Origin: a phage
Sequence record: PV467749.1
Reading direction: 5' to 3' (one strand)
Length of the DNA stretch: 64,000 bases
Part shown: in pieces, positions 40,934-41,567 of the stretch
Numbering within the stretch: position 1 is the stretch's first letter
How the letters are laid out: each line of letters starts with the position of its first letter
Notes under the pieces: generated by a model
What the model was told of the DNA's origin: nothing
The model's input: the letters and a program-made list of their open reading frames with translations, nothing else
Databases searched by the model: none
Translations under genes and position numbers: made by a program

Positions 40934-40997
40934 TAGATATTCCTCGATGGTTAATCATCCATCTCTTCGAGATGTCTGTTCGCTTCTAATACTACGT

Positions 40998-41026
40998 ATT
41001 CTACGCGAATGAATCATAACTGTCAA
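40998..41026 (-). promoter_or_regulatory. Sigma-70-like promoter TTGACA-N17-TAGAAT
   Basis: Minus reading TTGACAGTTATGATTCATTCGCGTAGAAT, about 65 nt upstream of gene start 40933. Confidence 0.55.
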
Positions 41027-41567
41027 GGACTTTTAATATTGACGGGATTTGAGGAAGGGATTTTTCTTCCCCCCGCACGGAGGGAAATTTGACGCTGATG
41101 GTATCAGAGCTATTGCATTGAAGATTACTCATAACGAGTGCGAAAGCGGGTCATCCTGTTTCTCTCTACTTCAGTTTCATATGACGGTCTACACTTTTAA
41201 ACATAGTGTATCTTCATTAAGTATCTATGCAATCAAATACTTAATGTGAGTACTCAAATTTTGGACGCAACTTTCCTGTACAAAATTCGATAACTCTCCC
41301 TTAGATAATTCGTAAGGTGTTATCCTTATATGTCTATCGAGGAACCACCAGCTATCCTAACGTGGTTCTTTATACAGCCGCATTGCCGTGAGGGGTTCAA
41401 ACTATGCCCACATCTAACGGGTTTCTTTTGCTGTTCGCTACAATGAAAAGCTCATCTATCCTTTACATTTTCAAGTGAAGTAGGGGAAGATTGTCAGTAC
41501 CAGTACTGTCATTGTGATTGTACATAGATCATTGTATCACCATTAATAAATTTGTCCCATAAAAAAA

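Follow-up and report, generated by a model that had tools for sequence, protein, structure and literature searches.

The 64,000-nt stretch of phage DNA analysed here (record PV467749.1; the window, below) contains, directly downstream of a sigma-factor gene, an intergenic island that is very likely a genuine gene, on the minus strand, for a structured RNA. The island (40934-41593) is bounded by the stop of the 321-aa sigma-factor open reading frame (ORF; 41594-42559, minus strand) and the start of a 69-aa ORF (40933-40724, minus strand), and its coordinates and sequence are those that an initial annotation of the window had described. That annotation offered three options for the island, namely a structured non-coding RNA (ncRNA), a replication origin or a regulatory region, and the first of these is now strongly supported by a covariation model of 79 base pairs with pseudoknots, by a promoter of the element's own and by conservation above that of the flanking genes. 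The strand of the RNA, its multiple copies per genome and its relatives in bacterial chromosomal islands are additions to that annotation. We consider it likely that the island is a stand-alone minus-strand gene for a highly structured ncRNA of ~500 nt, probably one that acts in trans.

Conservation and copies among Rak2-like jumbo phages

The source phage is a jumbo phage of the Asteriusvirus type; a 901-bp segment around the island shares 99.7% identity with Escherichia phage EC.P1 and 87% with phages 121Q and PBECO4. The conservation in related phages that the initial annotation had proposed to check is found in the RNA core. That is, against 121Q the 492-nt core retains 96.0% identity vs. 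71.8-86.3% for the flanking coding sequences (CDS), i.e., 71.8% for the sigma CDS, 72.3% for the ORF at 42582-43079, 79.2% for the ORF at 40724-40933, 84.3% for the HNH gene and 86.3% for the ORF at 40500-40727. BLASTN with the gap alone recovers ~70% identity over ~450 nt (window positions ~41029-41485) in Pectobacterium phage CBB, Cronobacter phage GAP32, Xanthomonas phage XbC2, Serratia phage BF, Yersinia phage fHe-Yen9-04, Salmonella phages Munch and 7t3, and Erwinia phage Kaldavass, and the element can be aligned in Asterius-, Mimas-, Eneladus-, Alcyoneus- and Munch-like jumbo phages (four genus-level groups beyond Asteriusvirus). The matches in these relatives sit in unannotated gaps of ~650 nt with differing neighbour genes; the element does not adjoin the sigma gene in CBB, GAP32, BF and Kaldavass, and in Munch it points toward convergent genes. 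A segment without coding function that is better preserved than its neighbours, and stays intact in new contexts, is a functional unit in its own right.

Exact matches to the motif TTTATANNGCCGCATTGCCG are found at 23 IMG/VR loci, two or three of them on a single contig in the case of 121Q, CBB, GAP32, BF, fHe-Yen9-04 and several uncultivated relatives, and an nhmmer profile search identified these loci as full-length diverged copies, so that by the two methods together the checked phage genomes have two to three diverged paralogues each. The copies lie at 90.2, 192.8 and 326.7 kb in 121Q, at 30.3, 93.0 and 335.4 kb in BF, at 39, 99 and 181 kb in fENko-Kae01, and at 56.7 and 306.7 kb in EC.P1, the closest relative of the window; the sister genome WPEC3 has a further, third-type copy at 187 kb, and K64-1 (Alcyoneusvirus) holds a more diverged copy. 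The window itself contains one copy only, with no second one detected by self-BLAST, by the motif with three mismatches allowed or by nhmmer. Copies within a genome are ~65-70% alike, whereas orthologous copies are 90-96% alike across species groups; therefore, the paralogues are old and have been separately maintained. Across the phage collection, the element was found in Rak2-like jumbo phages only (71 records), with no match in the non-Rak2 phage records, and there was no match among 72,556 plasmids. A degenerate IMG/VR scan (ATATGTCTATC...TTTATA) returned at least 120 mostly unrelated contigs and one new member, L133.

Covariation and the pseudoknotted fold

Comparative folding, another check that the initial annotation had suggested, gave clear support for a conserved fold. 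We tested a model of 17 helices and 79 pairs on an alignment (A3) made with MAFFT from sequence only, which holds 37 copies less than 96% identical and covers all phage paralogue types, the island copies described below and K64-1. Standard pairs occupy 95.1% of the cells vs. 76.4% after shuffling, 59 pairs have (compensatory) changes on both sides vs. 39.8, cells with changes on both sides number 520 vs. 155, and the covariation score is 0.500 vs. 0.178; none of 500 shuffles attained the observed value for any of the five measures used. When the 3' partners were slid by one to three columns, pairing fell to 36-43%. Helices P2, PK0, PK2, PK3 and P10 are 100% paired, P9 99.5% and P3 99.3%, with three or four pair types per position in several of them. 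Three crossing helices (PK0, PK2 and PK3) belong to the tested model, and a fourth, PK1, is informal: it has matched variants in at least 10 members (GAUAAC/GUUAUC, GAUGCA/UGCAUC, GUGCA/UGCAC, GAUCGC/GCGAUU and GAUACUAC/GUAGUAUC), and its longest complementary run averages 5.5 for a member's own pairs vs. 5.4 for cross pairs, a comparison that does not discriminate and in which the anchors are misplaced in several sequences.

Conservation extends to unpaired positions as well. More than 80 columns of the alignment are invariant, many of them, as judged by eye, in junctions, and the invariant segments include GAUGAG, GAAACCCG, CGGCAAUGCGGC, UAUAAA, GAUAGACAUAU, AAGGGAG, CGACCGUUG and CAACCCGC. 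Further, a hairpin module of ~35 nt (with UACAAUAUAGNNNNGUC inside it) occurs either between PK1 and P7 or inside P11, and at both sites in island copies; RNAs that have a defined three-dimensional architecture, such as RNase P and group I/II introns, typically show this kind of relocation of a peripheral element. The above-chance signal in the island is conservation and covariation, not repeats. The repeats quoted in the initial annotation, GAGGAAGGGATTTTTCTTCCCCCC and GGAGGGAAATTT, are present at 41051-41090, where they represent the two arms of the conserved hairpin P13 and its flank, but the remaining short direct and inverted repeats are two-copy, 9-21 nt long and chance-like, and there is no iteron array.

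Strand, promoter and predicted ends of the RNA

The promoter scan finds, on the minus strand at 41558-41531, GGGACA-16-TACAAT with a TG before the second hexamer, i.e., a -35-like GGGACA (41558-41553), a 16-nt spacer and a TG-extended -10, TGATACAAT (41539-41531); it finds no plus-strand promoter at the element. The block TG(A/G)(A/G)AC...TGnTATAAT is co-located in most phage copies (alignment columns 22-56), and island copies (e.g., L182) have the promoter block as TGAAAT...TATACT at the aligned position. The -35-like TGAAAC resembles the "divergent RpoD-like" promoter class (TGAAACG) of CBB and GAP32 (PMC5259590). In the helices established by covariation, the non-Watson-Crick pairs, read in the minus sense, are 180 G-U vs. 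34 A-C, and 71 vs. 4 in P9, P10 and P13 combined; this recount on alignment A3 supersedes an earlier symmetric G-U/A-C count (32 vs. 20), in which one variable hairpin was misaligned. The P11 loop is GCAA, GAAA or GUAA (GNRA) in seven members and a C(UUCG)G closure replaces the whole P3a hairpin in two members (L023 and L133), and GNRA and UUCG loops are standard in the minus sense only. Lineage-specific terminator-like insertions (a hairpin plus a U-run) are likewise all in the minus sense. The agreement of promoter, G-U excess, loop types and inserted hairpins places the RNA on the minus strand.

Alternatively, the plus strand might be the functional one, either as an RNA antisense to the gene block or as a DNA-level cruciform. 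As a single sequence, the plus strand gives a somewhat better fold (z = -2.8), and its segment TTGACGGGATTTG resembles the 5' part of transfer-messenger RNA (tmRNA), which we counted in favor of this alternative. However, on the plus strand A-C mismatches replace the 180 G-U pairs and pairing falls from 95.1% to 89.9%, the scan provides no promoter, ARAGORN and Rfam find no tmRNA, and the GNRA and UUCG loops become non-standard, which makes a functional plus strand very improbable. A related resemblance, that the tail CAAAUCCCGUC (41041-41051, minus strand) appears to be the exact complement of the conserved tmRNA 5' segment GACGGGAUUUG, is probably due to chance because two of its positions vary among paralogues (AAAUCUCG, AAACCCCG, AAACGCCU).

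The RNA is predicted to start near 41525, a position derived from the -10; its conserved core ends at 41037, and the last hairpin, P14, reaches ~41022. Perfect terminator-like insertions, apparently tolerated, are present at the 5' end, in or just after the promoter, in copies L005/L032, L014, L018, L021, L027, L028 and L033, and before the last hairpin in L007, L016, L023, L029 and L133.

Several points weigh against the interpretation of the island as a structured RNA gene. The RNA's start, end and expression are predictions from sequence, no canonical terminator was found after the RNA 3' end, and a terminator-like hairpin right after the promoter, as in some paralogues, is odd for a transcribed gene. 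Folding of the single sequence gives z = -1.5 for the minus strand vs. -2.8 for the plus strand, from folds that ignore pseudoknots, and such thermodynamics proved uninformative as an indicator of strand. With respect to the model, P12 is the weakest helix (89% paired, with zero compensatory change), PK1, P1b, P6 and P14 were misaligned by MAFFT and stand outside the formal count, and simultaneous formation of PK0 and P1 seems sterically difficult, so that the model is either incomplete or inclusive of alternative conformers. Finally, the helices were derived from the same sequences that were used for counting; the compensatory changes and the slid controls nonetheless speak for a real helix model. 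Judged on all the comparisons above, the element is a conserved, independently promoted unit whose selected property would be the minus-strand RNA fold, kept in three paralogues.

Coding potential and flanking signals

The island contains no minus-strand ORF of 60 aa or more, and the initial description of it as the only long ORF-free stretch of the minus-strand block is essentially right: the other gaps of at least 350 nt in the block are the tRNA/intron region (56369-56961 and 58093-58887) and 47218-47653, the last being largely occupied by a plus-strand ORF (47334-48491). In the RNA core (41034-41525), each of the three gene-sense frames has 11 stops. The longest ORF across the members of the RNA family has a median of 66 aa on either strand, with frame and strand varying between members, and no ORF is common to the members compared; hence, the conserved coding frame in relatives that would have spoken for a protein gene is not seen. 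The possibility that the element consists of small protein genes, or of a decayed gene, has next to no probability in our judgment. Some annotations place three to five "hypothetical proteins" over the element (WPEC5, SHEFM2K, JP4, GAP32 with GAP32_503A, and others), yet most curated records have nothing annotated there, and, in addition to the stops and the inconsistent frames, the substitutions are compensatory across helices, not synonymous. In practice, these tiny "hypothetical proteins" should give way to an ncRNA feature.

The third option of the initial annotation, a regulatory region, applies to the outer edges of the island only, i.e., the sigma terminator, the RNA promoter and the promoter of the next gene. 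The sigma-gene terminator is, as had been proposed, a real hairpin on the minus strand: read from the sequence, the intrinsic terminator of the sigma-factor gene (CDS 41594-42559) spans 41585-41561 with a stem GGUUGAC/GUCAGCC, a UUCG loop and a U7 tail, and the orthologous site has a terminator annotation in phage G17. It was not flagged by a simple terminator scan. Near-identical terminators of this type (UUCG hairpin plus U-run) are found on the same strand at 41562-41595 and also at 22179, 26801, 27482, 29060, 29845 and 33438, and this repeated family along the minus-strand block inflates the counts of places per record (4-8) in BLAST tables. At the other edge, the promoter scan confirmed, with 11 of 12 matches, the sigma-70-type promoter TTGACA-N17-TAGAAT at 41026-40998 (minus strand), which would serve the downstream gene block (first ORF 40933-40724). 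This segment lies outside the conserved core of the RNA family and is not conserved beyond Asteriusvirus. Further downstream, 350 nt from the RNA gene, lies an HNH-endonuclease ORF (39704-40588, minus strand; annotated HNH endonuclease in 121Q), probably a free-standing homing endonuclease unrelated to the RNA because it is missing from the equivalent loci in other genera.

Homologues in enterobacterial chromosomal islands

Scanning bacterial genomes and metagenomes for TTTATANNGCCGCATTGCCG, with hits filtered by the family profile, revealed full-length homologues of ~650 nt in the complete chromosome of Serratia fonticola GTA-SR07, in Enterobacter chinensis 170198, in Enterobacteriaceae RIT714 and in a Buttiauxella metagenome-assembled genome, while among E. 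coli, 2 of 5,426 complete genomes have a homologue. These copies lie toward one end of small integrative islands whose integrase type differs (tyrosine vs. large serine). In several islands, the RNA follows a large serine recombinase and is convergent with a CI/S24 repressor that has a Ner-like gene as its partner; in others, the recombinase position upstream of the RNA is taken by a ~420-aa ORF, a presumed tyrosine integrase. A CI-like repressor is the next gene, and convergent with the RNA, at nine island loci of bacterial or metagenomic origin.

Two islands illustrate the arrangement. In E. coli LR-29-1 (L246; NZ_AP027515.1, ~3472500-3483560), a ~10-kb island between ffs and ybaA contains an IS3-disrupted tyrosine integrase followed by the unannotated RNA homologue (L246 13884-14552), as well as DUF4326, DUF488 and dual-OB-domain genes and a small resolvase, and may be a defence or satellite-type island. 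In S. fonticola GTA-SR07, the homologue sits at the island edge beside duplicated rof genes, next to tilS, in an island with two ParB/RepB-like genes; the two almost identical 87-aa rof genes flank the island end (L176 4775-5490), which looks like a target duplication from integration into rof.

Pfam and PADLOC identified integrases, the CI/Ner switch, LprI, a resolvase and an ADP-ribosylglycohydrolase among the island neighbours, and no protein family was common to the phage and island RNA loci examined. Three candidates for a shared protein were rejected: the 303-aa ORF upstream of the E. coli island copy is unrelated to the 295-aa ORF upstream of a phage paralogue, a 286-aa island protein has no phage homologue, and the island repressor resembles those of Mu-like phages, not jumbo-phage proteins. 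The unit appears, from these comparisons of loci, to move between jumbo phages and chromosomal islands without an accompanying protein gene. It is tempting to speculate that the island copies, with their phage-type promoter, are read mainly upon phage infection, which would fit satellite-like or decoy islands.

In the form of a decoy or mimic, the island RNA would be part of a defence or satellite programme that is neutralised by the phage copies, or else the islands would copy an essential phage RNA in order to sense or sabotage the phage. We regard this as rather unlikely. The RNA is restricted to Rak2-like phages and small islands of their host order (plasmids and other phages being negative), the island copy is most similar to one phage paralogue (76% over 82% of its length to XaC1), the island promoters are of phage type, and the islands combine integrases, a Mu-like c/ner switch and variable cargo, all of which agree with such a relationship. 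On the other hand, no PADLOC defence family lies beside the RNA, there is no conserved toxin-like partner, and three paralogues in all genera look like a core function, not accessory counter-defence. Moreover, a decoy would be a sub-case of the trans-acting RNA gene that we favor rather than a true alternative to it.

Proposed function and its alternatives

Under the hypothesis of a trans-acting RNA, a host-type RNA polymerase would start at the TG-extended -10 promoter (41558-41531), directly past the sigma-gene terminator, and transcription would run from ~41525 to 41020. The transcript would then fold into a 5' domain (P1-P4) and a compact 3' core (P5-P13) tied together by three to four pseudoknots, with more than 60 invariant nucleotides that by eye fall mostly into junctions and loops, and the folded RNA would be expected to act in trans, either as RNA only or as a ribonucleoprotein of ribozyme-like complexity. 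No neighbour protein is common to phages and islands, and thus the partner should be the RNA itself or a conserved host component. Likewise, the host cell (Enterobacterales; Xanthomonas for some phages) is the sole commonality of the carriers, which suggests an RNA that is self-sufficient or linked to a host component. We put the odds at about even that the RNA works in trans, be it on or together with host machinery or in an RNA-only form.

The convergent orientation of the gene that follows the element in Munch and in the islands speaks against a purely cis-acting role. As a cis-acting leader, the RNA would modify the polymerase in a promoter-proximal position (processive antitermination as in HK022 put) or control read-through into the genes downstream. 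Its promoter-proximal position and the lack of a terminator of its own would suit such a leader, as would the shared orientation of the genes downstream, which holds for the window copy and for most phage loci, the series of at least six near-identical intrinsic terminators that the same strand of the window has further downstream, and the terminator-like hairpins tolerated inside some paralogues. Nevertheless, an antiterminator that acts in cis on its own polymerase has to precede its target genes in their orientation, and the gene after the element is convergent in Munch and at the nine island loci; this argument concerns the family as a whole and not the window copy. In addition, a separate strong promoter stands between the RNA and the next gene in the window, the neighbours differ for every paralogue, and the element is ~seven times larger than put RNA. 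We therefore give little credence to a leader function.

The replication origin that the initial annotation had also considered is not supported by the sequence of the island, which has no iterons, no AT-richness and no inflection in GC skew. That is, the check for iterons and AT-rich elements returned two-copy repeats of 9-21 nt only, a GC content of 0.37-0.40 vs. ~0.35 around, and a cumulative skew that does not turn. An iteron-type origin requires at least three direct repeats of ~17-22 bp and an AT-rich region, and neither was found at the island. An RNA-primed origin is a different matter, as it would involve a structured pre-primer (as in ColE1 RNA II or the T4 R-loop origins oriF/oriG) whose G-rich 3' part hybridises and primes; several copies would serve a 350-kb genome, and the islands would carry a copy for amplification by the phage replisome. 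The promoter of its own without a terminator, a G6/C6-rich hairpin ~40 nt before conservation ends, the two to three copies per genome with a spacing of about one-third of the genome in Asteriusvirus (90, 193 and 327 kb in 121Q) and the lack of replication genes of their own in the examined islands are consistent with priming, as is the resemblance of the promoter to a class reported upstream of CBB DNA-synthesis genes (PMC5259590). However, the island has no unwinding stretch or skew change, even spacing fails in Eneladus-, Mimas- and Munch-like phages (e.g., BF and fENko-Kae01), a conserved core with several pseudoknots and more than 60 invariant bases in junctions and loops is more than a primer RNA needs, and the three paralogues are distinct and individually conserved, which suggests separate functions. 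Hence, an origin of this type appears quite improbable.

Returning to the trans-acting RNA, a self-sufficient molecule would be catalytic or self-assembling, analogous to ROOL, GOLLD and OLE (PMC12286853). That it is a ribozyme-like RNA with an activity of its own (catalysis or ROOL/GOLLD-like self-assembly), or a handle for mutual recognition or exploitation between islands and jumbo phages, is a tentative proposal that we consider possible but doubtful. If the handle version were true, an island would be switched on or amplified only upon the arrival of a jumbo phage, and this would be the first case of a satellite-like or decoy system linked to jumbo phages via a shared structured RNA. An RNA common to phages and to small mobile islands of their hosts points to traffic between jumbo phages and chromosomal elements. 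Few large pseudoknotted RNAs are known, and the new one has very strong comparative support, with about three diverged copies kept throughout a lineage of phages with 350-kb genomes, whose hosts are E. coli, Salmonella, Klebsiella, Erwinia and Serratia. These carriers are culturable and genetically tractable, and therefore the function of the RNA is directly testable.

Architecture of the predicted RNA

The predicted ncRNA gene of ~500 nt (41020-41525, minus strand, as are all features that follow) is delimited by the nhmmer family match (41024-41568), by core identity and by covariation. Its 5' domain is closed by P1 (41440-41515; ACAAUGA at 41515-41509 pairing with UCAUUGU at 41446-41440), with six of eight pairs compensatory, and has in its interior the hairpins P1a (41508-41495) and P1b (41483-41456) and the invariant GAUGAG (41456-41451). 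PK0 (41437-41451), of 3 bp, joins GCU (41451-41449) and AGC (41439-41437) and is canonical at all three pairs in 37 of the 37 copies, with UA/AU/CG and AU/UA exchanges; it brackets the 3' strand of P1, and may be either a pseudoknot or an alternative conformer. P2 (41434-41430 with 41378-41374) encloses P3 (41420-41417 with 41389-41386), the two showing GC/CG and UA/AU exchanges over 41374-41434, and within them lie the hairpin P3a (41409-41393) and the invariant CGGCAAUGCGGC (41388-41377). The P4 hairpin (GAACCA...UGGUUC, 41342-41368) has six of six pairs compensatory, with up to four pair types per position.

The segment that follows (41289-41341) comprises the invariant junction GAUAGACAUAU (41338-41328), the P5 hairpin (41328-41313; part of the tested model) and the invariant AAGGGAG (41302-41296). 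Here, a probable pseudoknot, PK1, pairs the P5 loop GAUAAC (41324-41319) with GUUAUC (41294-41289), as judged from the matched variants. The P6 module hairpin (AAUUUUG...CAAAAUU with an 11-nt apical loop, 41257-41287), recognised from alignments and the list of P11 loops, is located in the P11 hairpin instead, or additionally, in other members.

In the 3' core (41112-41246), PK2, PK3, P9 and P10 each have several compensatory pair types. The loop of hairpin P7 (41246-41215), AUUGCAU (41233-41227), pairs with AUGCAAU (41118-41112) to form PK2, which connects this loop to a segment 110 nt downstream. P8 (41211-41189) is followed by PK3, GUCAU (41185-41181) with AUGAC (41154-41150), which links the invariant GACCGUUG with the P10 loop CAACCCGC; the core is completed by P9 (41173-41169 with 41123-41119), P10 (41166-41162 with 41146-41142) and the P11 hairpin (41140-41126). 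The 3' end region (41022-41107) contains P12 (41107-41095), the G/C-rich hairpin P13 (41086-41067), which holds the motifs quoted in the initial annotation and has many U-G pairs on the minus strand only, the conserved tail CAAAUCCCGUCAAUA (41051-41037) and the terminal hairpin P14 (GUCAA/UUGAC, 41043-41022), read from alignment A3.

Other RNA genes in the window

Elsewhere in the window, a tRNA(CAU) gene (56385-56683, minus strand) is apparently split in the anticodon loop by a group I intron (RF00028, 99 bits), with 5' exon GGGCCATTAGCTCACGGTGGTTAGAGCAAACGACTCAT and 3' exon AATCGTTAGGTACTGTGTTCGACTCACAGATGGCTCACA; it was not called by ARAGORN, and in the Rfam alignment the 5' exon appears as an insertion. 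A fifth, borderline tRNA (58672-58750, minus strand; 29.3 bits in Rfam vs. a gathering threshold of 29), not reported by ARAGORN, adjoins tRNA-Ser (58755-58844).

Comparison with known RNA families and systems

The Rfam scan that the initial annotation had recommended (Rfam 15, at gathering and permissive thresholds) matched no family to the island. At gathering level, there was no match in the island (models including ROOL, GOLLD, OLE, raiA, HEARO, 6S, RNase P, tmRNA and group I/II introns) and none in five bacterial loci; at E<=10, positions 40700-41800 gave four chance-level matches only (17-22 bits, to snoRNA, miRNA and sRNA models), and at E<=1 six other members gave no match inside the element. 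This is not a failure of the tool because the group I model detects the true intron 15 kb away in the window. We also found no published description of the element in the literature, including work on CBB, PA5oct, Sharanji, PLE/ICP1 and Minerva. With its fold, pseudoknots, covariation and lack of a conserved ORF, the RNA belongs among the large ornate structured ncRNAs, which is a descriptive class and not a homology family, and it would, on this sequence evidence, be a new class within that broad category, in no known family.

Individual candidates were rejected as follows. For tmRNA, ARAGORN detects four tRNAs in the window but no tmRNA, and P1 joins internal segments, not the RNA ends. For a group I intron, RF00028 matches 56433-56747 at 99 bits and nothing at 41 kb, and the element lies between a terminator and promoters, not within a gene. 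Type III toxin-antitoxin RNA, retron/DRT ncRNA and omega/bridge RNA were set aside because each depends on an adjacent protein partner (an endoribonuclease toxin, a reverse transcriptase, TnpB/IscB or an IS110 recombinase), whereas the neighbours of the element vary and Pfam and PADLOC gave no such partner family at the islands. Homology to the ncRNAs found by RNA-seq in PA5oct was sought at three loci with the family profile and nhmmer --max, with nothing significant.

The known RNAs of bacteria and phages that exceed ~400 nt and have a conserved fold with pseudoknots comprise the rRNAs, RNase P, tmRNA, group I/II introns, OLE, GOLLD, ROOL, HEARO and raiA, and the large pseudoknotted RNAs understood so far are catalysts, ribonucleoprotein scaffolds or unusual RNA assemblies. 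The new RNA resembles tmRNA, RNase P RNA and group I introns in being several hundred nucleotides long and in having more than one pseudoknot and invariant junctions, but it has no acceptor/T-arm, no flanking exons and another order of helices. It is similar to ColE1 RNA II and T4 oriF/oriG in that a promoter precedes a terminator-less transcript of ~500 nt (predicted for the new RNA) with a G-rich segment near the conserved end, in several copies; in contrast to these, it has no AT-rich unwinding element, GC-skew change or antisense-RNA promoter, and far more tertiary-structure conservation than such primers need.

Among large virulent phages, PA5oct, a relative of the Rak2-like group, has the ORF-less transcripts ncRNA001/002/004, of which ncRNA002 is 451 nt long (PMC7318152), and ICP1 has an abundant ORF-less RNA of ~800 nt (PMC7567579). 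Like the new RNA, these correspond to ORF-free gaps of 0.2-0.8 kb with transcription of their own (predicted for the new RNA); the PA5oct and ICP1 RNAs are known from expression without a structure model, whereas the new RNA is predicted from a structure model.

ROOL, GOLLD and OLE form RNA-only homo-oligomers in cryo-EM (PMC12286853). The new RNA is like them in its size class (~500 nt or more), in its many helices and pseudoknots with conserved junction nucleotides, and in being carried by phages or prophages as a stand-alone gene without an obligatory protein neighbour. It matches no Rfam family, however, which means no evidence of homology to the three, and the window copy does not lie beside tRNA genes (the nearest being ~13 kb away). 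It also differs from them in having about three diverged paralogues per genome and, as its carriers, the jumbo phages of Enterobacterales and Xanthomonas together with integrase-bearing chromosomal islands.

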